Shown in pieces: positions 48,224 to 64,000 of a stretch of 64,000 nt of DNA. This DNA is from Candidatus Helarchaeota archaeon (GTDB taxonomy: Archaea; Asgardarchaeota; Lokiarchaeia; Helarchaeales; RDOG01): assembly GCA_019058315.1 (NCBI GenBank), contig JAHPZH010000003.1, forward strand, positions 204,351 through 268,350, written 5' to 3'. The notes under the pieces were generated by a model, which was not told where the DNA came from, searched no databases, and saw nothing but the letters and a program-made list of their open reading frames with translations. A program made the translations under genes and the position numbers. Within the stretch, counting starts at the first letter, position 1, and every line of letters starts with the position of its first letter.

Positions 48224-51200
48224 TTATTTATAATCCCCGATATTTTCAAGAGTTTTTAGAAATTCTTGCCTTTCTTCCTTTGACATTCCAGCTAGTTCCT
48301 TCAACATTGCTATTTTTTCAGAGTCAGTTAAATCATCTAGTTTTAATATTTTCTCAATTTCAGTTTTTGATAAAGTTGTAAATCCTTTCTTAAAGAAATC
48401 CTCAATTTTCTTGTCTTTAATGAAGTCCAATGCAGTTTTTGACTTTACTAGACTTTTAAGTTTTGAATCCAAGTTTTTATCACCAATTCCCATGAATTTT
48501 GGTTTACTTCTAGTTACGGCAGCTATAGAAATTATGGAAACAGCAGCTATAGCACCTATAATTATAAAACCTAGAGGTGATAATAGAAAATCTAATATAC
48601 CTCCTTCTCCTCCAGGGGGGAATAAGGGTATTTGAGGTTCACTAGGCTTTTCAATGACTGTATAAACGTAAGAAAATGTCATATTAATATTGTTACTTGT
48701 ATCATTCACCCAAATTGAAAAATTAATTATAGTTCCAACAGTTCTTTGAGAGAAAACATACAACCAAAAACCATCATAATAATTGCCTGTATAGAAATTC
48801 ACCGTATCATTCTGAAATGTTCCAGTATAGTTGTGGCTGATAATAACTTTACTCACATTAACATTATCACTAATCCATATGAAAATAATCACATCATCTT
48901 CATCAGTTGGTGGATTTGGGTTTATTGTTACATAATGAATATTGGGAATTTCATTATCAATTATCGTATAATTGAATGAGCTATTAATATTAAAATTATT
49001 GTTTGTGTCGTTAGCTATTATTAAATAGTCAATTGTGGTTCCTGCTAGATTAGAGGGGATAATATAGTACCAATAGCCATCTTGAGGGGTTCCAGAAAGT
49101 GGAAACATTGTGTAATTACTCGGAGTACCCGTATGATTTGAATTAATTATAACAGTATCTATTCCCACGTTATCGGTAACACGAACAGTAATATTAACCA
49201 TATCCAAGTTGCCAGGCTTAACTAGATCTCGAGATACCAAAACTATATTTGGATTCTCCCTTACCACTACATATTGGTAAGGGCCAACAGTGTCAGGATT
49301 ATTAGTTGTATCATTTACCCAGATTGAATAAACAACCCTAGTTCCTATGGCTTGGGCGGGAATCGTGAAATTCCAATACCCATCTTGATTAGAACCTGAC
49401 AAGAAATCCATATCATAATCAGTTGGGGTCCCTGTGTGGTTTGAATTGAATAAGACAGTATCAATTCCCACATTATCAGTAATATAGACAGTGATATTAA
49501 CTATATATAAGTCACTAGGGGTGGATGGATCTCGAGAAACTGTAACTATATTTGGATTCTCATTATCAATTATCGTATATTGGTATGGTCCATCAATATC
49601 AAAGTTGATAGTTGTTGTATCACATGCCCAGATTGAATAATTGATAACTGTTCCTGCAAAATTGGCAGGAATAGTACAGTTCCAATAACCATCTTGAAAG
49701 GTTCCTGATAGGAAATCCATTGTATAATTGTCTGTAGTTCCTGTATGATTCGAAATAAGTAAAACTTTGTCTACTTGTACATTATCAGTAATACGAACAG
49801 TAATATTAACTGAATCAAGGTTACCAGGGTTTAGTGGGTTCCTAAAAACTGAAATTATATTTGGATCTTCGTTATCTATTACGGTATATGGATATGGACC
49901 ATCAGAAATCGAGTTATTACTTGTATCATTAACCCAGAATGAATATACAATTGTAGTTCCTGCTGTTTTTGCAGGAATTGTAAAGTTCCAATAGCCATCT
50001 TGAGCATCTCCTGATAGAAAATCCATTTCATAGTCGGTTGGGGTTCCTGAATGATTTGAATTAATCATAACGGTGTCAACCCCCACATTATCAGTAACTT
50101 GGATAGTAATATTAACAGGATCTAAGTTCCCAGGACCAGGTGGATCTATTAAGATTGAATCTATAACTGGATCCACAGCATCACTTATTCCTACTGTATA
50201 TTGGTAAGGACCATCAGTTTCCGGATTATTAGTTGTATCATTAACCCATATTGAATAAACAACTCTGGTTCCTGTAGGATAGGCAGGAATGGTGAAGTTC
50301 CAATAGCCATTCTGGTAAGATCCTGATAGGAAATCCATTGTATAATTGTATGTAGTTCCTGTATGATTAGAATTGATTAAAACGGTGTCAACTTCCACAT
50401 TATCAGCAATAATGCAAGTAATATTAACCGTATCCAAGTCACCAGGATTAAATGGATCTCGAGTAACTGCAATTATATTTGGATTTTCGTTATCAATTAT
50501 AGTATATTGATATGGTCCATCAGTAACATTATTATTACTTGTATCATTAGCCCAAATTGAATAATTAATTATAGTTCCAGCAGTATAGTTAGGAATAGTA
50601 TAGTTCCAATAACTATTTTGAGGGGTTCCTGATAGAAAATCCATTTTGTAAAATTCAAGGATTCCTGTGTTGATTATAACGGTGTCTACTCCCACATTAT
50701 CTGTAACACGGACAGTGATATTAACTGTATCCAAGTTGCCTGGGTTGAACGGATCTCTAGAAACTGAAACTATATTTGGATTTTCGTTATCAATAACAGT
50801 ATATTGATATGGTCCAGTTGTGTCAGGATTGTTACTCGTGTCATTCACCCAGAATGAATAACTAATGGTAGTTCCTGCTGGTTGGGCAGGAATTGTATAG
50901 TTCCAATAACCATCTTGAAATGTTCCTGATAAGAACTCCATTTCATAATCGGTAGGAGTTCCAGTGTGATTTGAATTGATTAAAACGGTGTCTACTCCCA
51001 CATTATCTGTGATATTAATAGTAATATTAACAGAATCCAAGTTACCAGGATTAAATGGATTTCTAAATACAGTATCAATATTCGGGTTTTCACCGTCGCT
51101 TATGAGATATTGGTATGGTCCATCAGTACTGGGATTGTTAGTTGTATCATTTGCCCAAATTGAATAAGTAACTGTAGTTCCTGCTGGATAGGCGGGAATT

Positions 51201-54200
51201 GTATAGTTCCAATAGCAATCTTGAATAGTTCCCGATAAGAAATCCATTTCATAATTTATCAGAGCTCCAGTATGGTTTGAATTGATTAAAACAGTATCTA
51301 CGCCTATATTATCAGTAACATGAACAGTAATATTTACAGTATTTAGATTATTAGGGAAAAGAGGGTCCCGTATAACTGAAATGATATTTGGATTCACACC
51401 ATCTATTATTGTATATTGGAAAGGACCATCTGTATTAAAGTTATTAACTGTATCATTCACCCAAATTGAATAAGAAATTGTAATTCCTATTGGAGATGCG
51501 GGAATAGTATAATTCCAAAAACCATTTTGAGCATCTCCACCTAGAAAATCCATTTCATAATTTAATGGGGTCCCTGTATGATTTGAATTGATTAAAACCT
51601 TGTCTACTCCTGTGTCATCAGTAATTTGCACGGTAATAATTACCGAATCTAAATTAGTTGGATTAGCTGGAACTCGTGAAATTGAAGCTACATTTGGAGG
51701 ATTTCCTTTTGTATTTACATACATTACTTCTTGATCAGATCCCCATTCACCATTTGTTGAATCAAACCAAACAACATGGAGATGCCCGTATTTATCTGCG
51801 ACGATATCGGGTCTATAACTGTGATCATTATTCCATCCGTATAGGTCTGAAATGACAGTTGCATTTGACCATCCTGAGGAAGGATAACTTACATACATAA
51901 TTTCAGTATCTAAACCCCAAGTGCCATTTGTTTGCTCTTCCCAAACAACATGTAATTTACCATTTTCATCAGTAATTATTCGAGCAAATCTACTAGTATC
52001 ATTATTCCAACCAGTACTATCATCTGAAATACAAGTTGCATTAGACCAACCAGAGGTTGTATGATTAATGTACATGATTTCTGCATCAGTTCCCCATTCA
52101 CCAACTGTTCGATCCTCCCAGACTACATGTAAATTTCCATTATTATCCATTGCTATATCAGGATTATAATTATTACCAGTATTCCAACCATAGATATCTG
52201 AAATACAAGTTGCATTAGACCAGCCCATAGATGTATAATTTGCATAGAATATTTCTATATCTGCTCCCCATTCACCATTCGTATCATCACGCCAGACCAC
52301 ATGTAAATCCCCATTATTATCTGTTATAATTTCTGGAGCTTCACTTGAGGCGTCATTCCATCCATAAATATCAGAAATACAAGTTGCATTTGACCAACCA
52401 GCTGCAGTATAGTTTGCATACATTATTTCTCTATCAGTTCCCCATTCACCATCTGTCAAATCTTGCCAAACTACATGAATGATTCCATTATTATCCGTGG
52501 CGATACTAGGATACTGACTATTACCGTCATTCCAACCATAAAGGTCTGAGATGCAAGTTACATTGGACCACCCAGCCGCAGTATAATTAACATAAAATAT
52601 TTCTTCATCCGTACCCCATTCACCATCAGTCCTATCATACCAGACCACATGAATTACACCATTAATATCTATAGTAATATCAGGAGCAGAACTATAATCA
52701 TCGTTCCATTGTGTAAAATCGTCTGAAATCACTGTAGCATTGGACCATCCCGCCATCGTATAATTTGCATACATAATTTCTTGATCGGATCCCCATTCTC
52801 CAGGTGTAGTATCAGCCCAGATAACATGTAAATTTCCATTATTATCAATTGCTATTCGAGAAAAAGAGCAAGAACCATCATTCCAACCATATACATCAGA
52901 AATTGCAGTTGCATTAGACCATATGAAAATATTTGAAAAGACATTATAATGGTATGGAACTGTGTTATTGAAGCTATTATTTGTATTATTAGTCCATATG
53001 GAATAAACAATAGTAGTGCCAGCAGGAGAAGCAGGAATAGTATAGTTCCAATAACCATCTTGATTATTTCCTGAAAGTAAATCCATTTCGTAATATATTG
53101 GAGATCCAGTATGATTTGAATTGATTAATACTGTATCTATTCCTCTATCATCGGTAATATGGGTTGTAATATTTACTGAGTCTAAATCATTGGGATCAGC
53201 AGGATATCTTGAAACTGCAGAAATATTTGGAGGTTTTCCTCTCGTATCTACGTACATAATTTCATCATCTGTTCCCCATTCACCATTTGTGCGATCCTGC
53301 CAAGCTATATATACATTTCCAATATTATCTGTAGCAATACAAGGATTTTCACTATTGTCGAAATTCCAATCAGTATTATCATCTGAAAGCACAGTTGCAT
53401 TAGACCAATCCACACCTTTATAATTTGCATACATAATTTCAAAATCCGTTCCCCATTCACCAGCTGTGTTATCCTCCCAAACAACATGCAAATTGTTATT
53501 ATTATCAGTAGTAATAGAAGGCACAAAACTTGTACCATCATTCCACCCATAAATATCAGATATCACTGTTACATTCGACCAACTCGCTCCTGTATAATTA
53601 ACATACATTATTTCTACATCAGCACCCCATGGACCATCTGTATAATCCATCCAGACGACATGTATATTTTCAGCAAAATCTGAGGTAATACTTGGATATC
53701 TGCTATCATCATTATTCCATCTAGTAAAATCATCTGAAATTACAGTTGCATTGGACCAGCCTGCAGCAGTATAATTTGTATACATTATTTCAATATCTGA
53801 ACCCCATTCACCATTTGTTCTATCTTCCCACACTACGTGAACTACTCCATTTTTATCCGTAGTGATGCTTGGGTTCTCACTAAAATCATTATTCCACCCA
53901 TAAATATCAGAAATCACAGTTACATTTGACCAACCCTTACTGGTGCGGTTTACATACATTATTTCTCTATCAAAACCCCATTCACCATCTGTGTCATCTT
54001 GCCAGACAACGTGTAAATTTCCATTATTATCCGTGGCGATTTCTGCATAATAACCACTACCATCGTTCCAACCAGTAAAATCGTCAGAGATAACAGTTGC
54101 ATTGGACCAACCTGAACCAGTATAATTTGAATACATTATTTCACTATCAATTCCCCATTCACCATCAGTGTAATCCTGCCAAACAACATGTATATTTCCA

Positions 54201-57200
54201 TAAATATCTACAGCTATACTAGGGACTGAACTTATGTCATCATTCCACCCGTAAAAGTCTGAGATACAAGTAACATTGGACCAACCAGCCAAAGTGTAAT
54301 TTGCATAATATATTTCCATATCTGTTCCCCATTCACCATCCGTAGCGTCTTCCCAGACAACATGTATATTTCCATTCATATCCGTTGCGATACTGGCTCC
54401 CCCACTATCACCATCATTCCAACCAGTAAAATCATCTGAAATGACTGTTACATTGGTCCAACTTGAAATTATATGAACTGTATATTGAAAAGGTCCATCT
54501 GTATCAAAATTATTATGTGTATCGTTCACCCAAATAGAATAAATAATCGTTGTTCCTGCAGTTTGAGCGGGAATTGTATAGTTCCAATAACCTTGTTGAG
54601 CATTCCCCGATAGAAAATCCATTTCATAATCTATAGGAGTTCCTGTATGATTTGAATTTATTAAGACGGTGTCAACACCTATATTATCTGTTATATATAC
54701 AGTAATATTAACTAAATCCTCATAATTTGGACTAATCGGATCTCTTGAGACTGAATTAATTTTAGGAGGACCTCCTTTTGTATTTACATACATTACTTCA
54801 GTATCAGCTCCCCATTCACCATCAGTATAATCATACCAAACAACATGTATATCACCATTTTTGTCAGCAAAAATCTTGGGGTACGAACTTGTATCATTAT
54901 TCCAACCAGTGATATCGTCTGAAATTACCGTTGCATTGGACCAACTTCCGTCAATATAATTTACATACATAATCTCCGTATCTGTTCCCCACTCACCATC
55001 TGTAAATTCAGACCATACGACATGTAGATTTCCATTATTGTCAATGTCTATGTTGGGATAATAACTCGAACCATCATTCCAACCAGTATAATCATCCGAA
55101 ATCACAGTAGCATTAGACCAATTTGAACCTGTATTATTTACATACATGATTTCTACATCAGAACCCCATTCACCATCTGTGAGATCATAAAAGACCACAT
55201 GTATATCCCCACTATTATCAATAGCAATACTCGGGTAATAACTCCCTGCAACATTCCATCCATAAATATCTGAAATCGCTGTTGCATTGGACCAATTTGT
55301 ACCATTATAATTAACATACATTATTTCCCAATCTGTTCCCCATTCACCATCTGTATCATCTTGCCAGACAACATGTATATTCGAATTATTATCCACAGCT
55401 AAATAAGGGTTCCAACTCCCACCATTATTCCACCCATAAATATCTGAAATACAAGTTGCATTAGACCAGATTCCAGATGAACAATTTGTATACATAATCT
55501 CATCATCAGTTCCCCATTCGCCATTCGTCGCATCATACCAAACAACATGAATATTACCATTCTTATCCGTGGTGATACTAGGTTCTTCACTATCACCATC
55601 ATTCCACCCAGTATAATCATCTGAAATCACTGTAGCGTTAGACCAACCCGCTGTGGTATAATTTGCATACATTATTTCTCTGTCAAGCCCCCATTCACCA
55701 TCTGTGGTGTCATACCAGACCACATGTAAATTTCCATTATTATCGATGGCGATTTCAGGTCCATAGCTATCACCATCATTCCACCCAGTATAATCGTCCG
55801 AAATCACTGTAGCGTTAGACCAACCCGTTGTGGTATAATTTGCATACATTATTTCTGTATCCGATCCCCACTCTCCATTTGTATAATCTTGCCAGACAAC
55901 ATGGACATTTCCATTATTATCAACAGCGATGCTAGGATACCAACTCGAATCACTATTCCACCCGGTAAAATCGTCCGAAATCACAGTAGCATTAGACCAT
56001 TTCAGAATAGTTCTAATTTTATATTGGTATGGACCATCTATATCGAAGTTATCATCTGTATCATTAACCCAGATTGAATAAATAATGGTTGTTCCTACAG
56101 GATAAGTAGGAATTGTGTAGTTCCAATAACCATCTTGATTATTACCTGATAGTAAATCCATTTCATAATTTGCTGGAGTTCCTGTGTGATTTGAATTGAT
56201 TAAAACTGTATTTACTCCTAAATCATCAGTAATATGGGCAGTAATAATAACTTGATCTAAGTTATTTGGATTAATTGGGTTCCTTGAAACTGAAATTATA
56301 TTTGGAAAATCGCTAGATTTATTTGAATACATTATTTCAACATCAGATCCCCATTCACCGTCTGTATTATCTTGCCAGACCACGTGAATGTTATCATTAT
56401 CATCGAATCCAAAATCCACGAAATAGCTATCTCCATCATTCCAGCCATTATAGTGGGAAATGCAAGTCGCATTAGACCAAGAAGAACCTTTATAATTTAT
56501 ATACATTATTTCATAATCAAGTCCCCATTCTCCATCAGTGCCATCTTGCCACAATACATGAATATTTCCATTACTATCTGCACCAATTCTGGGGTTCAAA
56601 CTATACCCATCATTCCATCCTGAGCTATCATCTGATATTACAGTTGCGTTTGACCAACCTGAAGCTGATGAATAGTTAGTATACATGATTTCTACATCAT
56701 CACCCCATTCACCATCCGTGTAATCATACCACACAACGTGCAGATTTCCATTAATATCTACAGTGATCCTTGGTCTCGAACTTATATCGTTATTCCATCC
56801 ATAAATATCTGAAATAACCGTAGCGTTGGACCATCCAGAACCGGAGTAATTTGCATACATAATCTCCCGATCAGTTCCCCACTCACCAACCGTTTCATCC
56901 TCCCAAACAACATGAAGGTTTCCTATGTCATCAGCAGAAATACTGGGATATCGACTTGTACCATTATTCCACCCCGTGAAATCGTCTGAAATTATTGTAG
57001 CATTAGACCAGCCTAAGGCAGTATAATTAACATACATTATTTCTTGATCAGTTCCCCACTCACCATTTGTTTCATCTTGCCAAACAACGTGAATATTCCC
57101 ATTTATATCTGTCGTAATGCTAGCATAAAAACCAGAATCATTGTTCCAACCATAAATATCAGATATTGCGGTTACATTGGACCAACCCGATTCGGTGTAG

Positions 57201-59221
57201 TTTACATATAGGATTTCAGTGTCAGTTCCCCATTCACCATCTGTCGTATCAGTCCAAACCACGTGAATATTACCGTTAATATCAGTAGCAATGCTTGGAT
57301 AGGTGCTCCCACCAACGTTCCAAAGAGTGTAATCATCAGATATTACTGTTGCATTAGACCAACCCGATTCAGTGTAATTTGCATACATTATTTCGTTATC
57401 TGTCCCCCATTCACCATTCGTTGTATCATACCAGACAGCATGAACGTTCCCAAAAATATCGACGGCTATACTTGGGTTAAAACTATCACCTATATTCCAC
57501 CCAGTAATATCGTCTGAAATTACAGTAGCATTAGACCAAATTGAACTGACAGTATATTGGTATGGACCATCAGTGGCCAAGTTATTATAAGTATCATTAA
57601 CCCAGATTGAATAATTAATTATAGTTCCTATTGTTTGAGCAGAAATTGTATAGTTCCAATAACCATCTTGATTGTTACCCGAAAGCAAATCCATCTCATA
57701 ATCCATAGGAGTTCCTGTATGGTTTGAATTAATTAAAACAGTATCTACTCCATAATTATCAGTAATATGAGCAGTAACATTCACTGAATCGAGATTGTTA
57801 GGATTAATTGGATCCCTTAACACAGAGAGTATTATTGGATTCTCAGGTTCCTTACTTGAGTACATTATTTCTGTATCTGTTCCCCATACACCATCAGTAT
57901 TATCATACCATACAACATGCAATCTTCCGTCTTTGTCAATGGCAATATGAGGATAAAGGCTATCTCCATCGTTCCAACCAGTATTATTATCTGAAATTAG
58001 GGTTGCATTAGACCAATTGGTACCAGTGTAATTTGCATACAAAATTTCATCATCAGAACCCCATTCACCATCAGTGTCATCCTGCCATACTACAAAAACA
58101 TTATCATGTATATCTATAGCTATGTCAGGATTAAAGCTACCAGCATCATTCCATCCGTAAATATCTGAAATTGCAGTTGCATTGGACCAGCCTGCACTAG
58201 TGTAATTTACATACATTATTTCTATGTCTGTTCCCCATTCACCAGCTGTGTTATCAAGCCAGACCACGTGAACATTTCCATTACTATCCGTTGCAATACT
58301 AGGATTTTGACTTGAACCACCATTCCATCCATAAATATCAGAAATTGCAGTTGCATTAGACCAACCAGAGGTGGTATAATTAGCATACATTATTTCTACA
58401 TCTGCTCCCCATTCACCTATAGTGGTATCCTGCCAAACTACATGCAAATTCCCATCTTTATCTTTAGCGATGCTAGGATATATACTGGTTCCATCATTCC
58501 AACCAGTAAAATCGTCAGAAATCACAGTTGCATTGGACCAGCCTCCCCCAGTGTTATTTATATACATTATTTCATTATCAATTCCCCATACTCCATGTGT
58601 AGTGTCTTCCCAGACTACGTGTAAGTTGTTATTATTATCAATAACGATTTTAGGCATGTAGCTACTTCCATTATTCCATCCGGTACTGTCATCTGAAATT
58701 ACGGTTGCATTGGACCAGCCTGTGGCAGTATAATTTGTATACATTATTTCTGTATCTGTTCCCCATTCACCATCAGTATAATCCTCCCAAACCACATGTA
58801 AGATTCCATTATTATCCGTGGCGATACTAGGATACTGACTATTACCGTCATTCCAACCATAAAGGTCTGAGATACAAGTTACATTGGACCAGCCCGCCGC
58901 AGTATAATTTACATATAGTATCTCTCGATCATTTCCCCATTCACCATCAGTATAATCCATCCAGACCACATGTACAATTCCATTATCATCTATGGCTATA
59001 CTTGGCATAATACTAGTATCAATATTCCATCCTGTAGAATCATCCGAAATTACAACGACAGTAGACCAACTAGAAGAACTTAAATCTAAATTATTATTAT
59101 CAACAACGGGTAATGATGGAATTATAGGAGAAATAGGAATAATTGAAAGGATAAAAACAAAAGGAATCAGAATAACAATGATAAGCATAATATATTTGAT
59201 AAAATTATTTTTATATTTCAT
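48224..59221 (-). CDS. Giant single-pass surface protein: signal/TM, five units of [7-blade propeller + Ig-like], nine more Ig-like domains, TM, ~95-aa cytoplasmic tail
   Basis: 35 ~59-aa repeats WSNATxISD..GWN...S..P.I..D..G..HVVW.D.T.GEWG.D.EIMY in five groups of seven; 14 ~100-aa repeats P.I..V.R.P..P...D.V.IT..ITDN.GVDTV; dense NxT sequons; ATG 59221 follows GGTGA. Confidence 0.9.
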   Translation of the reverse strand: MKYKNNFIKYIMLIIVILIPFVFILSIIPISPIIPSLPVVDNNNLDLSSSSWSTVVVISDDSTGWNIDTSIMPSIAIDDNGIVHVVWMDYTDGEWGNDREILYVNYTAAGWSNVTCISDLYGWNDGNSQYPSIATDNNGILHVVWEDYTDGEWGTDTEIMYTNYTATGWSNATVISDDSTGWNNGSSYMPKIVIDNNNNLHVVWEDTTHGVWGIDNEIMYINNTGGGWSNATVISDDFTGWNDGTSIYPSIAKDKDGNLHVVWQDTTIGEWGADVEIMYANYTTSGWSNATAISDIYGWNGGSSQNPSIATDSNGNVHVVWLDNTAGEWGTDIEIMYVNYTSAGWSNATAISDIYGWNDAGSFNPDIAIDIHDNVFVVWQDDTDGEWGSDDEILYANYTGTNWSNATLISDNNTGWNDGDSLYPHIAIDKDGRLHVVWYDNTDGVWGTDTEIMYSSKEPENPIILSVLRDPINPNNLDSVNVTAHITDNYGVDTVLINSNHTGTPMDYEMDLLSGNNQDGYWNYTISAQTIGTIINYSIWVNDTYNNLATDGPYQYTVSSIWSNATVISDDITGWNIGDSFNPSIAVDIFGNVHAVWYDTTNGEWGTDNEIMYANYTESGWSNATVISDDYTLWNVGGSTYPSIATDINGNIHVVWTDTTDGEWGTDTEILYVNYTESGWSNVTAISDIYGWNNDSGFYASITTDINGNIHVVWQDETNGEWGTDQEIMYVNYTALGWSNATIISDDFTGWNNGTSRYPSISADDIGNLHVVWEDETVGEWGTDREIMYANYSGSGWSNATVISDIYGWNNDISSRPRITVDINGNLHVVWYDYTDGEWGDDVEIMYTNYSSASGWSNATVISDDSSGWNDGYSLNPRIGADSNGNIHVLWQDGTDGEWGLDYEIMYINYKGSSWSNATCISHYNGWNDGDSYFVDFGFDDNDNIHVVWQDNTDGEWGSDVEIMYSNKSSDFPNIISVSRNPINPNNLDQVIITAHITDDLGVNTVLINSNHTGTPANYEMDLLSGNNQDGYWNYTIPTYPVGTTIIYSIWVNDTDDNFDIDGPYQYKIRTILKWSNATVISDDFTGWNSDSSWYPSIAVDNNGNVHVVWQDYTNGEWGSDTEIMYANYTTTGWSNATVISDDYTGWNDGDSYGPEIAIDNNGNLHVVWYDTTDGEWGLDREIMYANYTTAGWSNATVISDDYTGWNDGDSEEPSITTDKNGNIHVVWYDATNGEWGTDDEIMYTNCSSGIWSNATCISDIYGWNNGGSWNPYLAVDNNSNIHVVWQDDTDGEWGTDWEIMYVNYNGTNWSNATAISDIYGWNVAGSYYPSIAIDNSGDIHVVFYDLTDGEWGSDVEIMYVNNTGSNWSNATVISDDYTGWNDGSSYYPNIDIDNNGNLHVVWSEFTDGEWGTDTEIMYVNYIDGSWSNATVISDDITGWNNDTSSYPKIFADKNGDIHVVWYDYTDGEWGADTEVMYVNTKGGPPKINSVSRDPISPNYEDLVNITVYITDNIGVDTVLINSNHTGTPIDYEMDFLSGNAQQGYWNYTIPAQTAGTTIIYSIWVNDTHNNFDTDGPFQYTVHIISSWTNVTVISDDFTGWNDGDSGGASIATDMNGNIHVVWEDATDGEWGTDMEIYYANYTLAGWSNVTCISDFYGWNDDISSVPSIAVDIYGNIHVVWQDYTDGEWGIDSEIMYSNYTGSGWSNATVISDDFTGWNDGSGYYAEIATDNNGNLHVVWQDDTDGEWGFDREIMYVNRTSKGWSNVTVISDIYGWNNDFSENPSITTDKNGVVHVVWEDRTNGEWGSDIEIMYTNYTAAGWSNATVISDDFTRWNNDDSRYPSITSDFAENIHVVWMDYTDGPWGADVEIMYVNYTGASWSNVTVISDIYGWNDGTSFVPSITTDNNNNLHVVWEDNTAGEWGTDFEIMYANYKGVDWSNATVLSDDNTDWNFDNSENPCIATDNIGNVYIAWQDRTNGEWGTDDEIMYVDTRGKPPNISAVSRYPADPNDLDSVNITTHITDDRGIDTVLINSNHTGSPIYYEMDLLSGNNQDGYWNYTIPASPAGTTIVYSIWTNNTNNSFNNTVPYHYNVFSNIFIWSNATAISDVYGWNDGSCSFSRIAIDNNGNLHVIWADTTPGEWGSDQEIMYANYTMAGWSNATVISDDFTQWNDDYSSAPDITIDINGVIHVVWYDRTDGEWGTDEEIFYVNYTAAGWSNVTCISDLYGWNDGNSQYPSIATDNNGIIHVVWQDLTDGEWGTDREIMYANYTAAGWSNATCISDIYGWNDASSEAPEIITDNNGDLHVVWRDDTNGEWGADIEIFYANYTSMGWSNATCISDIYGWNTGNNYNPDIAMDNNGNLHVVWEDRTVGEWGTDAEIMYINHTTSGWSNATCISDDSTGWNNDTSRFARIITDENGKLHVVWEEQTNGTWGLDTEIMYVSYPSSGWSNATVISDLYGWNNDHSYRPDIVADKYGHLHVVWFDSTNGEWGSDQEVMYVNTKGNPPNVASISRVPANPTNLDSVIITVQITDDTGVDKVLINSNHTGTPLNYEMDFLGGDAQNGFWNYTIPASPIGITISYSIWVNDTVNNFNTDGPFQYTIIDGVNPNIISVIRDPLFPNNLNTVNITVHVTDNIGVDTVLINSNHTGALINYEMDFLSGTIQDCYWNYTIPAYPAGTTVTYSIWANDTTNNPSTDGPYQYLISDGENPNIDTVFRNPFNPGNLDSVNITINITDNVGVDTVLINSNHTGTPTDYEMEFLSGTFQDGYWNYTIPAQPAGTTISYSFWVNDTSNNPDTTGPYQYTVIDNENPNIVSVSRDPFNPGNLDTVNITVRVTDNVGVDTVIINTGILEFYKMDFLSGTPQNSYWNYTIPNYTAGTIINYSIWANDTSNNNVTDGPYQYTIIDNENPNIIAVTRDPFNPGDLDTVNITCIIADNVEVDTVLINSNHTGTTYNYTMDFLSGSYQNGYWNFTIPAYPTGTRVVYSIWVNDTTNNPETDGPYQYTVGISDAVDPVIDSILIDPPGPGNLDPVNITIQVTDNVGVDTVMINSNHSGTPTDYEMDFLSGDAQDGYWNFTIPAKTAGTTIVYSFWVNDTSNNSISDGPYPYTVIDNEDPNIISVFRNPLNPGNLDSVNITVRITDNVQVDKVLLISNHTGTTDNYTMDFLSGTFQDGYWNCTIPANFAGTVINYSIWACDTTTINFDIDGPYQYTIIDNENPNIVTVSRDPSTPSDLYIVNITVYITDNVGIDTVLFNSNHTGTPTDYDMDFLSGSNQDGYWNFTIPAQAIGTRVVYSIWVNDTTNNPDTVGPYQYVVVRENPNIVLVSRDLVKPGNLDMVNITVRVTDNVGIDTVIINSNHTGTPSNYTMFPLSGTPQDGYWYYIIPSNLAGTTIDYLIIANDTNNNFNINSSFNYTIIDNEIPNIHYVTINPNPPTDEDDVIIFIWISDNVNVSKVIISHNYTGTFQNDTVNFYTGNYYDGFWLYVFSQRTVGTIINFSIWVNDTSNNINMTFSYVYTVIEKPSEPQIPLFPPGGEGGILDFLLSPLGFIIIGAIAAVSIISIAAVTRSKPKFMGIGDKNLDSKLKSLVKSKTALDFIKDKKIEDFFKKGFTTLSKTEIEKILKLDDLTDSEKIAMLKELAGMSKEERQEFLKTLENIGDYK

Positions 59222-59374
59222 CTTCTCACCTAAATTTGAAAATAAAATCAATCTAAAATGATGAAATTTTACTTATAAATGCATGACGTCCATTTTAAAA
59301 TTAGGTTGTGGTAGTCGAGTATGTAAAAAATGATTAAAAAAGGGATATTTTATTTTAGAAATAAAATTAAGGGA

Positions 59375-61642
59375 CTACATTTCCTTGGTAAAAATTTCTG
59401 CTACAAGATCTTTGGCAGTTCTAAAGCGCCCAACATCTCCAACGAAATTTTTTAAATCGTTTTCATATTCTTTTTCAAATCTTTTTAATAATTTCTCCTG
59501 TCGTTCTACTGTTAATTGGTTGGGAATTCCTGAAGTAATGAGTGCAGCTACTGTGTATTGTCCATCTTTCAAAAGTATTTCAAAATGCTCATAAGAAAGG
59601 TTTTTCATAGCTGTTTCTTTAGCTGTTTTTGACAATTCCATCCCAAAACTTTGTATTGCAGTTAGAAAGCCACCAATTAAATCAGAATCGAGCGATTCTT
59701 CGGTAAAATTGTGATTATACATACTCAAACCGTTAGCTTTGTTAATCACCATTAATGCAAATAGTATTTGATTCGAATATTGTATATTCATTTCATTTAA
59801 TTGCTTTTTTAAATCCGCATTTCCCCTCTCAATATTTTTCTTTGTAGTTTCATCTACATTTGGTGATTTAAAGTAAGTCTCGGAAGTTGTGTCAGAAAGA
59901 ATGATTATAGCTTCTATCCAATTTAGAATATCATATTGTAAGTTTAAATATGTCCGATCCCAGATTTTCTCATCCTTTATATTTTTTAACTCATTAATCC
60001 ATTTATTAAACATTGTAGTTAGTATTGTGGTTACTTTTTGATCAGGGAAATAAGAATTTGATTTAATATTCAATTCTTTTAATACTAGTATGATATCATT
60101 AATATCCGATTTGTTTGTGCATAGATTATTTAATTCGGAAATCCTTGAAGCAAGTTCAATCGCATTATAAATTTTATTGGTAATAGCATCCATCGTGGTT
60201 ACTATTTTTGTTGTAACTTCAAGTGCAACAGTTATCAAATTCTTAATATACGCAATAAATCCAGTCGCTTGCTTCATATCTGATGTCCAGACTTCAAGAT
60301 TAATATTTGAATCAACAATATTCAATTCTACAATCATTGTATTTCCTGTAACTTTAGCAGTACCAGAAAAAATCGCATTCATTTTATCAAAATCTATTTC
60401 AATTTCGGCTAAATCAAGAGCAGATATTTGATCGCTTGCTATTTTAAAAGCTTGGGAACCGGGAATGTTGGAAAAGTAGACTTTGGCTGCTCCTCTTAAT
60501 AGTGATTTCTTCCAATTTTCAATATCCAATTTTGTTGCTTTTTGGGGGGTTACTAAAGGACATTTAATCCATATTTCCTTTGGCTCAATAGTCAAAGAAT
60601 GAGGTTTTCCATATGTATCTACATATGATAAAGTTCCAAAAACGTTAGATTTTCCACAAGTCAGAGGGATTAAAGTAAAATCTACGCCTCTAGATTCTCC
60701 AGGAGTTAAAACATCGATTTCTTGAATTCTATTTTCTATCCTATATTGAGTAGTAGGGGTTAACATAACACTAAGTTTAGATATTGTTGTTGGTGTTTCA
60801 TTCCTAACTGCAACTTTAAAACGAATATTTCCCCCAATATGATCAAATTCGCGTAAGATTTTAATTTGTTCAGTTGCGAGAGGTGGTGGAGTTACTTTCC
60901 TAATTATAGGCGGTTTAATTTCTAATTCAGGAATCTTTAAAATTTCTTGAATAGGAGTTATTTTCTCTAGATTTCCGAAAAAATTGGTTTGTCCATATTC
61001 TTCCTTTTTGTTTATCAAATTTAGTTCTAGTAAAATTTTGATAATATTTCTTACATTTTCCAATTTTAAACCTGAATTATCTACTAAATCAGATAAATTT
61101 ATTCCAGGTTCTAATAATATTAATACTAAAATTTTGAGATTCTTTGGATCTTTTAGTGTAAAAATCGCTTTATCAAATTCAAGATTGATTTTAGAATCAA
61201 AAAATGCCATTTTATTTGTAATTTTATTTTTCCTTATAAAATCAAATTTTTCTAACATTTTTAAGTGCCAAGCAATTAAACGCGGCGATAGATTGAGTTC
61301 TTTACGTAATTCTCTTAAATGACACCCAGGTTTTTTAAAAATATATTTATATATCTTATTCCGATTATTATTTTCAAGAACTATCTCTTTAGTAATTTTA
61401 GAGCCTTCGATAATATAATTTCTCAAAATTAATTGATAAATAGCTTGACTAATATCGTTTTTTGAATCTTTTAATTCATTAATAGATTTTTTATACAATT
61501 CTTGAAGATCTAAGGGTCTATCTTTCGTTAATTTATTAGCGATTTTTAAGATTGATTCTTCAAGAGGTGAAAGTTTTAATTCTTTTATTAATATCACCCT
61601 TATTAGTGCATAATTATGCAGAACAGTAAATATCTTCTCCAA
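59375..61642 (-). CDS. Cytoplasmic multidomain protein: winged HTH, coatomer/adaptin appendage-like sandwich + platform, helical region, longin
   Basis: NRNKIYKYIFKKPGCHLRELRKEL..WHLKMLEKF (wHTH); FKVAVRNET..ISKLSV..LTPGES..VFGTLSY..EIWIKCP (appendage-like); LMVINKANGLSMY..DSDLIGGFLTAIQSFG..FEKEY..L.NFVGDV..F (Asgard-type longin); true start may be GTG ~61598. Confidence 0.75.
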   Translation of the reverse strand: MEKIFTVLHNYALIRVILIKELKLSPLEESILKIANKLTKDRPLDLQELYKKSINELKDSKNDISQAIYQLILRNYIIEGSKITKEIVLENNNRNKIYKYIFKKPGCHLRELRKELNLSPRLIAWHLKMLEKFDFIRKNKITNKMAFFDSKINLEFDKAIFTLKDPKNLKILVLILLEPGINLSDLVDNSGLKLENVRNIIKILLELNLINKKEEYGQTNFFGNLEKITPIQEILKIPELEIKPPIIRKVTPPPLATEQIKILREFDHIGGNIRFKVAVRNETPTTISKLSVMLTPTTQYRIENRIQEIDVLTPGESRGVDFTLIPLTCGKSNVFGTLSYVDTYGKPHSLTIEPKEIWIKCPLVTPQKATKLDIENWKKSLLRGAAKVYFSNIPGSQAFKIASDQISALDLAEIEIDFDKMNAIFSGTAKVTGNTMIVELNIVDSNINLEVWTSDMKQATGFIAYIKNLITVALEVTTKIVTTMDAITNKIYNAIELASRISELNNLCTNKSDINDIILVLKELNIKSNSYFPDQKVTTILTTMFNKWINELKNIKDEKIWDRTYLNLQYDILNWIEAIIILSDTTSETYFKSPNVDETTKKNIERGNADLKKQLNEMNIQYSNQILFALMVINKANGLSMYNHNFTEESLDSDLIGGFLTAIQSFGMELSKTAKETAMKNLSYEHFEILLKDGQYTVAALITSGIPNQLTVERQEKLLKRFEKEYENDLKNFVGDVGRFRTAKDLVAEIFTKEM

Positions 61643-61786
61643 TAATAGAATTTTTTGGGGCTATTTTTATTTTAATGATTGGATATTAATAAATTTTCTT
61701 ATAAATTTGAATAACGATTAAAAATAATATAGATTGTTTCTAGTTATTGATAATTAAAAAAAAGGGAATAAAATTGAATAATCGTA

Positions 61787-64000
61787 TTATTCAATGTTTT
61801 CAAGAGTTTCTAGAAGTTCTTTTCTCTCTTCCTTTGAGAAACCAGCTAATTCTTTAATTAACTCAATTTTTTCAGAGGTACTCAAATCATCTAATTGCAA
61901 TATCTTTTCAATTTCATTCCTTGATAAGGTTGAAAACTCTTTCTTGAAGAAATCTTTAATATATTTTTCTTTTACGAAATCCACAGCAGTTTTTGATTTA
62001 ACTAGATTCTTAAGTTTAGCATCCAGATTTTTTTCACCTACTCCCACAAATTTTTGCTTTCTCTTAGGTATTACAACTATCGAAATTATGGCGAGAGCTG
62101 CAATAGCACCTATAATTACAAAACCTAAAGGTGATAATAAGAACTCAATAATACCTTCTTCTCCTTGTACTCCCAATAAACCTAAAAGTAATGGAGGTTC
62201 GATAGGTTTTTCTTTCTCAGTAACAGAATAATAGTAATTTATTGAGCTGATATTATTATTTCTTGTGTCATTCACCCAAATTGAGTAATTAATGGTAGTT
62301 CCTGCGGAATAGGCGGGAATGGTGAAGTTCCAATATCCATCTTGAGCAGTTCCAGAAAGATAATCCATCTCATAATATATTAAGGTACCGGTGTGGTTCG
62401 AATAAATTAAAACAGTGTCTACACCCACATTATCAGTAATATGGACTGTAATATTAACTAGATCTGAAGCTTCAGGGTTAAGTGGGTCTCTTGAAACCAA
62501 GATTATGTTGGGTGCTTCATTATCGATTATCAAATATTGGTACGGCCCAAAAGTAATGTTGTTATTTCTTGTGTCATTTACCCAGATCGAATAAATAATA
62601 GTAGTTCCTGCAGGATAGGCAGGAATGGTATAGTTCCAATAACCATCTTGAGGAGTTCCAGAAAGAAAATCCATTTCATTATATGTAAAGAAACCAGAGT
62701 GGTTTGAATAAATTAAAACTGTGTCTACGCCTACATTATCGGTAACATTAACGGTAATATCAACTGTATCTAAGTTGCCAGGAAAATATGGATCCCTTGA
62801 ATCTGAAATGACATTGGGATTCTCATTATCAATTATCGTGTACTGGTAAGGGCCGTCAGTAGCGGGATTGTTGTTTGTATCATTTACCCAGATCGAATAA
62901 TTAATGGTAGTTCCTGCGGGATAGGCAGGAATACTATAGTTCCAATAGCCGTCTTGAGGAGTTCCGGAAAGTGGGTCCATCTCGTAACTCAATATAGAAC
63001 CGGTGTGATTAGAATAGATTAAAACTGTGTCTACGCCTACATTATCAGTAACATGAACCGTAATATTTACTGTATCTAAGTTGCCAGGGGTAAGTGGGTC
63101 CCTTGAAGTTGAGACTATATTAGGATATGTGAAATCATATGTTGTATATTGGTAAGGACCATCAGTATTGGGGTTGTTATTTGTATCATTCACCCAAATC
63201 GAGTAGGTAACGGTAGTTTCTGCCACTACGGCGGGGATGGTATAGTTCCAGTAACCATCTTGAGGAGTTCCAGAGAGTGGGTCCATTATGTAATCTACTG
63301 GAGAACCAGTATGGTCAGAATTGAGTAAAACGGTGGCTACTCCCACATTATCTGTAATACGAACAGTAATATTAACTAGATCTAGATTACTTGGGTTAAG
63401 TGGGTCCCTTGAAACTGAAATGATATTGGGAGGCTCATTATCAATTATCGTGTACTGGTAAGGACCGTCAGTAGTGGGATTGTTGTTTGTATCATTCACC
63501 CAGATCGAATAATTAATGGTAGTTCCTGTGGAATAGGCGGGAATAGTATAGTTCCAATAGCCATCTTGAGGAGTTCCAGAAAGTGAATCCATCTCGTAAT
63601 TCAATATAGAACCGGTGTGGTTAGAATAGATTAGAACGGTGTCTACGCCTACATTATCAGTAATATGAACGGTAATATTAACTGTATCTAAGTTGCCAGG
63701 AGCAAGTGGGTCTCTTGAAACTGAAATGACATTAGGATTCTCATTATCTATTATCGTGTACTGGTAAGGGCCGTCAGTAGCGGGATTGTTGTTTGTATCA
63801 TTCACCCAGATCGAATACGTTATGGTAGTTCCTGCCAGATTTGCAGGAATGGTATAGTTCCAATAGCCGTCTTGAGGAGTTCCGGAAAGTGGGTCCATTT
63901 CGTAATCTACTGGGGAACCCGTATGATCAGAATTGAGTAACACCGTATCTACTCCCACATTATCGGTAATACGAACGGTAATATTAACCAAATCTAAATT
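61787..64000 (-). CDS. Second large surface protein (5' part outside the window): at least six Ig-like repeats, TM, cytoplasmic tail
   Basis: Frame is open to base 64000; 300-nt near-identical DNA repeats; same Ig repeat, TM (LLSPLGF.IIGAIAA) and tail as 48224..59221. Confidence 0.9.
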   Translation of the reverse strand, partial: NLDLVNITVRITDNVGVDTVLLNSDHTGSPVDYEMDPLSGTPQDGYWNYTIPANLAGTTITYSIWVNDTNNNPATDGPYQYTIIDNENPNVISVSRDPLAPGNLDTVNITVHITDNVGVDTVLIYSNHTGSILNYEMDSLSGTPQDGYWNYTIPAYSTGTTINYSIWVNDTNNNPTTDGPYQYTIIDNEPPNIISVSRDPLNPSNLDLVNITVRITDNVGVATVLLNSDHTGSPVDYIMDPLSGTPQDGYWNYTIPAVVAETTVTYSIWVNDTNNNPNTDGPYQYTTYDFTYPNIVSTSRDPLTPGNLDTVNITVHVTDNVGVDTVLIYSNHTGSILSYEMDPLSGTPQDGYWNYSIPAYPAGTTINYSIWVNDTNNNPATDGPYQYTIIDNENPNVISDSRDPYFPGNLDTVDITVNVTDNVGVDTVLIYSNHSGFFTYNEMDFLSGTPQDGYWNYTIPAYPAGTTIIYSIWVNDTRNNNITFGPYQYLIIDNEAPNIILVSRDPLNPEASDLVNITVHITDNVGVDTVLIYSNHTGTLIYYEMDYLSGTAQDGYWNFTIPAYSAGTTINYSIWVNDTRNNNISSINYYYSVTEKEKPIEPPLLLGLLGVQGEEGIIEFLLSPLGFVIIGAIAALAIISIVVIPKRKQKFVGVGEKNLDAKLKNLVKSKTAVDFVKEKYIKDFFKKEFSTLSRNEIEKILQLDDLSTSEKIELIKELAGFSKEERKELLETLENIE

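Follow-up and report, generated by a model that had tools for sequence, protein, structure and literature searches.

A duplicated cassette of giant surface proteins and winged-helix, appendage and longin domain proteins in a Helarchaeota genome

Gene content of the locus

The analyzed stretch of DNA (64,000 nucleotides of contig JAHPZH010000003.1 of a Candidatus Helarchaeota archaeon, in the following termed the window) harbors three co-oriented ORFs on the minus strand (Table 1), the first of which is open at its 5' end. They encode a surface protein (P0003), a cytoplasmic protein (P0001) and a giant surface protein (P0002), the gene set that had been proposed in an earlier sequence-only reading of the window. 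P0001 comprises 755 amino acids if read from a TTG codon; judged by the family alignment, the GTG at 61597 is the likely start, resulting in approximately 740 amino acids. P0002 has 3675 amino acids counted from a TTG, and the ATG at 59221, which is preceded by GGTGA, is its likely start, giving 3665 amino acids in line with the earlier estimate. The P0003 gene extends beyond the window across a gap of 100 N and encodes at least about 2090 amino acids in total. A second paralogue of P0001 (56% identical) is located upstream of the P0003 gene, outside the window, so that the locus represents a cassette of two genes, receptor and partner, that has been duplicated in tandem. Read from the sequence, an individual TATA-like box, with a T-run in front, precedes each gene of the window, so co-transcription is not evident there. 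No small GTPase or ESCRT gene was found within the cassette.

Table 1. Features of the receptor/partner locus in window coordinates.
Feature	Position	Strand	Basis
P0002, giant surface protein	48224..59251	(-)	ORF and translation, family hits, repeat count, start context
P0002 tail (aa 3580-3675)	48227..48514	(-)	Alignment; match to tail profile A4 (E 8.6e-29)
TM helix of P0002 (aa 3552-3579)	48515..48598	(-)	Hydropathy scan, alignment of 13 paralogous C-termini
Intergenic region P0001-P0002	59252..59374	(-)	T-run behind stop codon; TTTATAAG box; GGTGA before ATG 59221; read from sequence
P0001, cytoplasmic 3 x wHTH-appendage-four-helix bundle-longin protein	59375..61642	(-)	ORF, Pfam, AF2
Longin domain (aa 626-755)	59378..59767	(-)	VIA
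Helical bundle (aa 456-625), 'Vps28-C-like' part of the published architecture	59768..60277	(-)	AF2 models
Appendage platform subdomain (alpha/beta, aa 361-455)	60278..60562	(-)	VIA: AP4 beta platform; whole-appendage alignments
Appendage sandwich subdomain (Ig-like, aa 257-360)	60563..60874	(-)	AF2; Foldseek and VIA: alpha, beta2 and COPI appendages, BBS9
Triple wHTH module (aa 16-245)	60908..61597	(-)	Pfam, NCBIfam, profile search
Recognition helix of wHTH-2 (aa 119-133, SPRLIAWHLKMLEKF), predicted tail docking site	61244..61288	(-)	Complex model
Intergenic region P0003-P0001	61643..61786	(-)	AT-rich; T-run right behind stop codon; TTTATAAG box 5' of P0001; read from sequence
P0003, C-terminal 736 aa of upstream surface paralogue of P0002	61787..64000	(-)	ORF, Pfam
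P0003 tail (aa 644-736)	61790..62068	(-)	tblastn, alignment of C-termini, tail profile A4
TM helix of P0003 (aa 616-643)	62069..62152	(-)	Hydropathy scan, alignment of 13 paralogous C-termini

Surface proteins and their cytoplasmic tails

P0002 and P0003 are paralogues with beta-propeller and Ig-like repeats and one transmembrane (TM) helix each. An N-terminal signal anchor of P0002 is followed by five propeller/Ig units, each consisting of approximately seven propeller blades and one Ig-like DUF7743 domain, then by about nine more Ig-like domains, the TM helix and a tail. The protein contains 140 N-x-S/T sequons and matches the Pfam families DUF7743 and SBBP as well as the NCBIfam PDIAV lipoprotein family. 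In the visible part of P0003, six Ig-like DUF7743 domains precede the TM helix and the tail.

Both C-termini are arranged in the order hydrophobic helix, basic stretch and tail, and the tails are paralogous (69% identity across 126 amino acids, tblastn E 3e-44), which bears out the shared TM helix and conserved tail noted earlier. The basic juxtamembrane stretch of P0002 leads into a conserved helical domain of approximately 55-60 amino acids with the motif LS..E...IL.L....SEK...LKELA.LS.EEREEFL..LE. The tail domain is a three-helix domain, and the tails are acidic in most cases.

Domain architecture of P0001

The N-terminal half of P0001 is formed by three winged-helix (wHTH) domains of the ArsR/MarR type. 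Pfam assigned HTH_24 (E 3.9e-11), HTH_HVO_0163_N (39 bits, cut-off 31) and MarR, in accordance with the sequence-only reading, and NCBIfam assigned ArsR/SmtB. A profile search of structures with the wHTH region retrieved the DNA-binding ArsR/SmtB, HlyU, Lrs14 and MarR proteins and gave no match to the ESCRT-II winged helix. The second winged helix (wH2, residues 89-155) has a net charge of +9. The conserved H and L of its recognition helix are general ArsR features and do not by themselves indicate a protein-binding role.

The folds of the remaining part were read from an AF2 model of residues 245-755 (mean pLDDT 91.3) and searches of the PDB. Residues 257-470 resemble adaptin and COPI appendages (Foldseek E 3.6e-10 to 1e-7), with a Z of 14.0 for the alpha-adaptin ear across approximately 200 residues (VIA). 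A real platform subdomain is present, as the AP4 beta platform alone aligns with a Z of 12.9 (rmsd 2.6 A, 113 residues); the appendage named in the earlier reading is thus an appendage indeed rather than a generic CARDB/Ig fold without a platform. The C-terminal longin domain was likewise recognized correctly. It matches Trs23 (Z 14.1), Fuzzy (13.8), Sec22b (13.2, rmsd 2.6 A), VAMP7 (12.4) and AP3 sigma (11.7) in VIA, and about 60 further copies of longin domains are found in the genome; none of the Pfam longin or roadblock models matched P0001.

Between platform and longin, the AF2 model contains one long helix and a four-helix bundle that had escaped the earlier reading. The top matches of this part in a wide VIA search were generic four-helix bundles (Z 11.6), with the yeast Vps28 C-terminus on rank 15 (Z 9.7, rmsd 2.3 A, 92 of 94 residues). 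Neither a Foldseek match at E <= 0.001 nor a Pfam VPS28 match was obtained for the bundle. In these model-based searches the Vps28-C assignment appears unspecific, being neither confirmed nor excluded.

Linkage of tail and wHTH genes

Fourteen tail-bearing membrane proteins are encoded in the genome (tblastn and tail profile), and all 14 genes adjoin a gene for a triple wHTH protein, seven of these being standalone (approximately 250 amino acids) and the other seven also containing the appendage-longin part. In further genomes from the class, 31 of 34 loci with a tail gene are followed directly by a wHTH gene, which often overlaps; of the three loci that are not, two lie where the contig stops. 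For full-length P0001 homologues in other assemblies, a tail-bearing gene was found directly upstream in four of five sampled cases. The linkage spans unrelated membrane proteins, namely propeller/Ig giants, beta-helix proteins and polytopic Zn-ribbon proteins of approximately 540 amino acids. Soluble small ORFs of the tail domain (72-92 amino acids) without a wHTH neighbor exist as well. The gene adjacency postulated from the window is thus conserved. The expected co-occurrence applies to tail and wHTH genes but frequently not to the appendage-longin part, since the usual partner of the tail, here and in relatives, is a standalone triple wHTH protein of approximately 250-300 amino acids without appendage or longin.

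Several receptors carry parts of the module covalently. Four receptors of the genome consist of ectodomain, TM helix, appendage, bundle and longin and have no tail. In a library at 50% identity, P0145 is a receptor-TM-wH-appendage protein, P0095 a receptor-TM-module-tail protein and P0209 a receptor-TM-(tail-like)-3xwHTH protein, while P0180 and P0194 have the order 2TM-3xwHTH.

Predicted contact between tail and wHTH module

A complex model of P0001 residues 1-248 with a 78-amino-acid tail construct scored 0.72, compared to 0.28 for the best of three controls. Among solved complexes, 58 of 80 attained this mark, as did 2 of 110 mismatched pairs; both counts are only approximate because own alignments were used in the complex modelling. 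The runs share at least 51% of the contacts with a partner pLDDT of at least 56, and a single run out of three scored 0.00; the outcome reflects model confidence rather than a measurement. The predicted interface comprises wH2 residues 119-125, 127-129 and 132 and the last two tail helices (residues 41-78 of the construct). An interaction of the tail, as anticipated by the sequence-only reading, is hence predicted, albeit at another site than proposed. The pair with the lowest predicted error, wH2 position 125 and tail position 67, covaries across cassettes (W-F, R-W, K-Y, I/A/V-F). This covariation could stem from shared ancestry, because cassettes duplicate as units and independent events are few.

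Proposed function and alternatives

Based on the wHTH adjacency, the complex model and the receptor fusions, the wHTH module is the most likely docking site of the tail, rather than appendage or longin. The best explanation, to which a probability of about 0.5 is assigned, is docking of the receptor tail on wH2, by which the partner would be held at the membrane and its DNA-reading surface masked. The receptor is a giant glycosylated single-pass surface protein, the three-helix, mostly acidic tail domain of which might grip the wH2 recognition helix in the cytoplasmic partner. Extracellular events (ligand binding, clustering or damage) would change the hold of the receptor and might release the partner. 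Since the partner in most genomes is the wHTH module alone, the simplest output would be transcription. The covalently tethered wHTH forms (P0145, P0209, P0180) argue against a simple release to DNA, barring cleavage or membrane-bound DNA. Since the module is fused directly behind the TM helix in other receptors encoded by the genome, docking might be the non-covalent equivalent, which places the appendage-bundle-longin part as an interaction hub under the receptor, where appendage and longin might recruit partners.

A rather doubtful alternative is that P0001 is a cargo adaptor for sorting, the wHTH domains of which have lost DNA binding and only grip the receptor tail. The appendage would recruit accessory proteins, the bundle would bind ESCRT-II like Vps28-C and the longin would be a platform for a small GTPase, with the giant surface proteins being sorted, clustered, shed or turned over. 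This function was proposed in print by Makarova et al. (PMC10936438, section 6) and was also the line of the sequence-only reading. It is in accordance with the appendage and longin folds, the permanently tethered wH forms of the library, the presence of Snf7 (three copies) and EAP30 (two copies) in the genome, and the substitution of the HTH by a PCI domain, a protein scaffold, in some paralogues; the fusion of the module behind the TM helix in the four receptors here and in several of the library suits a role at receptors more than one at DNA. However, the majority of tail partners are plain triple wHTH proteins without adaptor module, the wHTH profile is nearest to bona fide DNA-binding regulators, the match to Vps28-C is unspecific and the cassette is devoid of small GTPase and ESCRT genes.

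It is unlikely that the wHTH protein is an ordinary local regulator of the neighboring surface gene and that the tail binds cytoskeleton, lipid or another target, never the wHTH. Regulator genes often adjoin their targets, and the ArsR/MarR-like character of the domains, the promoter-like box before each window gene and the soluble tail-domain ORFs without wHTH neighbor would fit such a regulator. Against it stand the linkage, which tracks the tail across unrelated ectodomains and topologies rather than one type of target, the overlapping genes in many relatives, the complex model exceeding its controls, the covarying contact and the receptor-TM-(tail-like)-wHTH fusions. Very improbable is a tail bound to appendage platform or longin with the wHTH as separate DNA-binding output, a geometry modelled by the sequence-only reading on eukaryotic cargo and accessory motifs that bind AP/COPI ears and sigma/mu subunits: eukaryotic appendage platforms and longins are peptide-binding sites and P0095 unites module and tail in a single chain, but tail genes mostly have wHTH-only partners, the four receptors with directly fused module have no tail, and the modelled tail lies on the wH2 recognition helix.

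Comparison with known systems

The combination of HTH or PCI, adaptin appendage, Vps28-C-like bundle and longin in Asgard archaea was described by Makarova et al. 2024 (mBio, PMC10936438, section 6), where such multidomain proteins were proposed to bind ESCRT-II through Vps28-C, and appendage/Vps28 fusions were reported by Liu et al. (10.1101/2020.10.19.343400). P0001 shares the kinds and order of domains with this family, to which about 70 close P0001 homologues in Loki-, Hel- and Hodarchaeota-labelled assemblies belong. Neither publication mentions a partner receptor, a conserved tail or the gene neighborhood. Of the 'undescribed system' claimed earlier, the domain architecture has therefore been published, and the connection of the receptor tail with the wHTH module appears to be new, being absent from the literature searched.

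The pairing logic is that of the bacterial HAAS/PadR-like wHTH dyad, for which a role as an alternative to two-component systems has been suggested (PMC11237479). In this dyad, membrane proteins of diverse kinds carry a small cytoplasmic domain of three helices, and the gene for a wHTH regulator invariably lies next to theirs. The archaeal tail is C-terminal, whereas HAAS is N-terminal; the archaeal partner is a triple ArsR/MarR/HVO_0163-type module instead of a single PadR domain, and some archaeal partners add the appendage-longin module. Pfam HAAS touched one of 13 tails (22.8 bits over 20 residues, cut-off 27). A genuine PadR and HAAS pair exists separately on a Helarchaeota contig.

Membrane anti-sigma factors with their ECF sigma factors and the membrane-tethered one-component regulators ToxR and CadC are similar in that a DNA-binding domain on the cytoplasmic side is bound by, or part of, a protein that crosses the membrane once; in the complex model, the tail covers the DNA-reading helix. 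These systems have no sequence relation to the archaeal pair, and archaea are not known to possess sigma factors.

An Ig sandwich with a TBP-like platform directly behind it, as in P0001, is found in the ears of AP2 alpha/beta2 and COPI beta/gamma and in the GAE-platform-helical part of BBS9 (whole appendage: Foldseek E 3.6e-10; VIA Z 12.6-14.0 over approximately 200 residues, BBS9 Z 12.6 over 254 residues). P0001 and the eukaryotic ears share 10-13% sequence identity, superposition of the entire appendage results in an rmsd of 7-8 A, which points to a different angle between the subdomains in P0001, and the HEAT-repeat trunk and hinge of AP/COPI are absent. The longin has the fold of Trs23/Bet5, Sec22b, VAMP7, Fuzzy and AP sigma/COPI zeta (113-127 residues, rmsd 2.6-2.9 A, Z 11.6-14.1) but, besides matching none of the Pfam longin or roadblock models, forms the C-terminal end of a multidomain chain. 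For these eukaryote-like modules, the conserved tail points to a testable physical partner.

Organization of the locus

The window carries three genes on the minus strand, which confirms the observation of the sequence-only reading: a cytoplasmic protein of 755 aa (P0001) is encoded between two paralogous surface proteins (P0003 and P0002), the last 126 residues of which are 69% identical to each other.

Open reading frames of the receptor locus
Feature	Position in the window	Strand	Basis
P0003, partial surface protein (5' open)	61787-64000	minus	ORF call
P0001, cytoplasmic wHTH-appendage-longin protein	59375-61642	minus	ORF call
P0002, giant surface protein	48224-59251	minus	ORF call

Translation of P0002 likely starts at the ATG at 59221, resulting in a protein of 3665 aa. 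Its N-terminus is a signal anchor, followed by five propeller units, each composed of about seven blades of ~58 aa (SBBP/PDIAV-lipoprotein-like) and capped by one Ig-like DUF7743 domain. About nine additional Ig-like domains, a single transmembrane (TM) helix and a cytoplasmic end of 96 aa complete the protein, which contains 140 N-glycosylation sequons. According to the neighbouring contig sequence, the P0003 gene runs on to a total of at least about 2090 aa across a gap of 100 N (G000:C11:268351-268450), which begins one base past the window end. The N run breaks the tandem Ig-like repeats of this gene and shifts the frame. Upstream of P0003, a second P0001-like gene is located, the product of which shows 56% identity to P0001. 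The locus thus consists of a two-gene cassette duplicated in tandem. It is flanked by unrelated housekeeping genes, encoding a hydrolase, a methyltransferase and a diphthamide synthase on one side and Maf-like and Xaa-Pro peptidase-like proteins on the other. The source genome (Asgard, 5.8 Mb in 12 contigs) has its closest database proteins labelled as Hodarchaeota, Promethearchaeota, Helarchaeota and Lokiarchaeota.

Both intergenic regions (59252-59374 and 61643-61786, minus strand) contain a T-run straight after the preceding stop codon and a TTTATAAG box before the next gene. These elements were picked out by eye, while a sigma-70/terminator scan was disregarded as unsuited to archaea. They suggest separate archaeal promoters rather than a single operon, and since each gene has its own T-run and box, co-transcription is not evident in the window. 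The sequencing runs listed for the region are exclusively of DNA from sediment metagenomes.

Linkage of receptor tails and wHTH genes

The conserved cytoplasmic tail of P0002 and P0003 was found in 14 membrane proteins of the source genome by tblastn and a tail profile. A gene for a triple winged-helix (3xwHTH) protein adjoins the tail gene in all 14 cases, seven times as a standalone gene (about 250 aa) and seven times fused to the appendage-bundle-longin part, hereafter the module. Of 41 close relatives, 37 possess the tail; when the whole phylum was sampled, it occurred mostly in one class (38/40 genomes of one family), with weak partial matches in one other family. In other genomes, the wHTH gene lies immediately downstream of the tail gene, often overlapping it, in 31 of 34 loci, and two of the three exceptions stop at a contig end. 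Five full-length P0001 homologues from other assemblies were sampled. In four cases, the gene immediately upstream encodes the tail (E 1.4e-12 to 1.7e-7), and in the fifth, a divergent tail-like motif stays below the threshold. The adjacency of the two genes noted in the sequence-only reading is conserved. The tail occurs on different kinds of membrane protein, namely propeller/Ig giants, beta-helix proteins and, in the form of two repeats, polytopic Zn-ribbon proteins (about 540 aa).

In one family of relatives (L039:1348-2976, minus strand, and similar loci among L028-L060), the tail is found on a polytopic protein of about 530-590 aa rather than on a giant one. A Zn ribbon forms the N-terminus of this protein, which also contains a long acidic linker and two tail repeats in tandem, and the gene behind it encodes a wHTH protein of about 300 aa. 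Short ORFs for soluble proteins (72-92 aa) that comprise nothing but the tail domain (E 1e-8 to 2e-12) occur in the source genome (G000:C5:22425-22562, minus strand) and in many relatives (L066-L073). The surroundings of nine of these ORFs were checked, and a wHTH or module gene was absent within 3 kb in every case. The small proteins could act as free competitors for the wHTH site. Beside another tail/wHTH cassette of the source genome, a 3233-aa protein (G000:C3:800490-810188, minus strand) ends in a different helical motif, LSDEDRKMIRDSILLLDPDEQRTTIDDLKKQ, which may represent another type of receptor tail. A 1571-aa protein (G000:C1:212907-217619, minus strand) is encoded just downstream of the tail/wHTH pair on contig C1; its C-terminus, DPTLISGFIQAVKGFGSELS, resembles the first half of the Asgard longin motif (E 6e-6 in the longin search).

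Domain architecture of P0001

Three wHTH domains were assigned by Pfam to residues 16-225 (approximately) of P0001, each above its cut-off (HTH_24, 42.8 bits versus 21.9; HTH_HVO_0163_N, 39 versus 31; MarR, 24.9 versus 24.6). A profile of the wHTH module matched ArsR/SmtB, HlyU, Lrs14 and MarR structures in the PDB (E 6e-10 to 1e-3), and by these matches the domains belong to the DNA-binding ArsR/MarR class. An ESCRT-II-like interpretation of the array was dropped, as only DNA-binding regulators were matched in the PDB. Likewise, a conserved W-H-L in the recognition helix was not retained as a sign of protein binding, because H and L are general features of ArsR proteins.

For residues 245-755, sequence searches of the PDB gave no significant match, and the same was true for the tail. 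Fold searches were based on an AF2 model of this part (58 homologues, pLDDT 91.3). Model residues 13-118 form an eight-stranded Ig-like sandwich, which lies within the alignments to alpha, beta2 and COPI appendages. With Foldseek, ranks 1-17 in the PDB were taken by AP2 alpha/beta2 and COPI appendages and two BBS9 entries (E 3.6e-10 to 3e-6). Whole appendages aligned across about 200 residues with Z-scores of 12.6-14.0, the highest value belonging to the alpha-adaptin ear (VIA-align). The AP4 beta platform alone aligned to model residues 118-234 (Z 12.9, rmsd 2.6 Å, 113 residues; VIA-align), so a true platform subdomain follows directly behind the sandwich, and the appendage proposed from sequence is upheld. 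In the AF2 model, the angle between the two subdomains deviates from that in eukaryotic ears, with an rmsd of 7-8.5 Å over both compared to 2.6 Å for the platform alone, and this deviation may be an artefact of the model. Of the ligand-binding residues of such ears (FxxxW/platform Trp site), no more than a loose I-x-x-W was seen, in the first platform helix of some family members. In eukaryotes, the ear is located at the end of a HEAT-repeat trunk and hinge in a large adaptor subunit; the N-terminal half of P0001 consists of the three wHTH domains instead, and in paralogues, this half is replaced by TM receptors or PCI domains.

The last 130 residues of P0001 fold as a longin in the same model (DSSP order E,E,H,E,E,E,H), as the sequence-only reading had stated. 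The best matches with VIA-align were Trs23 (Z 14.1), Sec22b (Z 13.2, rmsd 2.6 Å, 120 residues), VAMP7 (Z 12.4) and AP3 sigma (Z 11.7), while no curated longin or roadblock model of Pfam or NCBIfam matched P0001 at E ≤ 0.1. About 60 further matches to this longin (aa 625-752) are encoded in the source genome, many of them as the C-terminal part of proteins that are 1000-2700 aa long. Between platform and longin, a long helix and a four-helix bundle were predicted (pLDDT 89.6 when modelled alone). The bundle resembles generic or designed bundles best (Z up to 11.6, VIA-align). The C-terminal domain of yeast Vps28 (2j9u_A) ranks 15th, below these generic bundles (Z 9.7, rmsd 2.3 Å, 92/94 residues). 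A profile search of the PDB matched Vps28 at E 0.3, no member of the P0001 family matched the Pfam VPS28 model, and a Foldseek search with the bundle gave nothing at E ≤ 0.001. Variant architectures also occur (P0110, 545 aa; P0061 and P0062, about 640 aa), with 3xwHTH, bundle and longin and without the appendage, or with a PCI domain replacing the wHTH array.

Predicted contact between tail and second winged helix

The complex was modelled from the wHTH module (64-row alignment) and the C-terminal 78 residues of P0002 (13 rows). It scored 0.72 (runs 0.00, 0.73 and 0.72) compared to 0.28 for the best of three controls. The mark for this score was reached by 58/80 solved complexes and 2/110 mismatched pairs, counts which are approximate because custom alignments were used. 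At least 51% of the contacts were in agreement in the complex runs, and the partner pLDDT was at least 56. In the model, the recognition helix of the second winged helix, wH2 (S119-K132, SPRLIAWHLKMLEK), lies against the last two tail helices, and the pair with the lowest predicted error is W125 of wH2 and F67 of the tail. These two positions change together across cassettes (W-F, R-W, K-Y and I/A/V-F); the R-W pairing, of type B, is encoded at C3:603329-608450. The covariation is suggestive only, since the events are few and cassettes duplicate as units. The net charge of wH2 is +9, an indirect hint of DNA binding, and the majority of the tails are acidic.

Receptor fusions and interpretation

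Four receptors of the source genome continue from the TM helix straight into the module, and propeller repeats of the P0002 type are present in one of these receptors. Further fusions were found in a library clustered at 50% identity, namely receptor-TM-wH-appendage (P0145), receptor-TM-wH-module-tail (P0095), receptor-TM-(tail-like)-3xwHTH (P0209) and 2TM-3xwHTH (P0180 and P0194). Taken together, these fusions bring the wHTH array as well as the module to the cytoplasmic side of membrane proteins.

The evidence is best explained by a receptor/partner dyad, the receptor of which would dock on wH2 with its tail. The tail would sequester its wHTH partner, as the predicted contact covers the DNA-reading helix, and the module would serve as a receptor-proximal hub, recruited either by direct fusion or by docking of the tail on wH2. 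A serious rival is a sorting adaptor, with which the tethered wH forms and the direct fusions of the module agree well. Sequestration, by analogy akin to anti-sigma/sigma pairs or the bacterial HAAS-PadR dyad, is favoured because the wHTH domains are of a DNA-binding class, wH2 is strongly basic, the majority of the tails are acidic and the modelled contact lies over the DNA-reading helix. A far-reaching proposal, which we consider improbable, is that the cassette is a working proto-adaptor: the wHTH array would read the receptor tail and, being linked to an appendage hub and to a longin as platform for GTPases, would pick the cargo for membrane sorting driven by GTPases or ESCRT. The eukaryotic scheme, with its cargo tail, adaptor, ear and longin, would be derived from this arrangement, HEAT trunks having later replaced the winged helices. 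If so, the selection of specific membrane proteins for such sorting would already take place in Asgard archaea. Docking of the tail on the appendage or the longin, the geometry of the sequence-only reading, is the least supported arrangement, because most tail partners lack both domains. The earlier interpretation is thus partly supported, its domains and gene linkage being retained and its docking geometry not.

Many adaptin-appendage and longin proteins are encoded in Asgard genomes. To our knowledge, their binding partners are known to nobody, which limits all arguments on archaeal precursors of eukaryotic trafficking. A concrete candidate partner is supplied here, namely the conserved tail (about 60 residues) of giant surface proteins, for which the predicted interface names individual residues. 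Independent gene fusions set the module directly under the membrane at such receptors and, together with the tail, turn a list of domains into testable pairs.

Comparison with known systems

The architecture of HTH or PCI domains combined with an appendage, a Vps28-C-like bundle and a longin was published by Makarova et al. (PMC10936438), who proposed links to ESCRT-II and small GTPases, and C-terminal fusions of Vps28 and adaptin/COPI domains were noted earlier by Liu et al. (10.1101/2020.10.19.343400). The architecture of P0001 is therefore already known, and the locus cannot be called an undescribed system on this account. Neither text mentions the partner receptors or the tail, and the linkage of receptor tail and wHTH gene, the interface model and the fusion evidence were not found in the searchable literature.

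A close analogue is the HAAS/PadR dyad of bacteria, in which a small helical membrane-linked domain is likewise always encoded beside a wHTH gene, as is the case here in 14/14 loci of the source genome and in 31/34 loci of other genomes; the parallel is one of logic, not of homology. One of 13 tails reached 22.8 bits over 20 residues with the HAAS model PF22564 (cut-off 27), and a genome scan gave E 0.7 on tails. Homology of the tail to HAAS was rejected on this sub-threshold match, and HAAS was kept as an analogue only. The partners differ as well: that of HAAS is a standalone PadR-type wHTH protein, whereas the tail is paired with a triple HTH_24/HVO_0163_N/MarR module without a PadR match. 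On a Helarchaeota contig, the gene of a P0001 homologue is immediately followed, on its downstream side, by a canonical PadR gene and then a gene for a HAAS-domain membrane protein (L061:3335-4956, plus strand); Asgard archaea therefore contain genuine HAAS-PadR dyads alongside the tail/wHTH dyad. With 14 copies in a genome of 5.8 Mb and a distribution largely confined to one Asgard class, the tail/wHTH dyad seems, by analogy, to be an archaeal counterpart of HAAS-PadR and anti-sigma logic.
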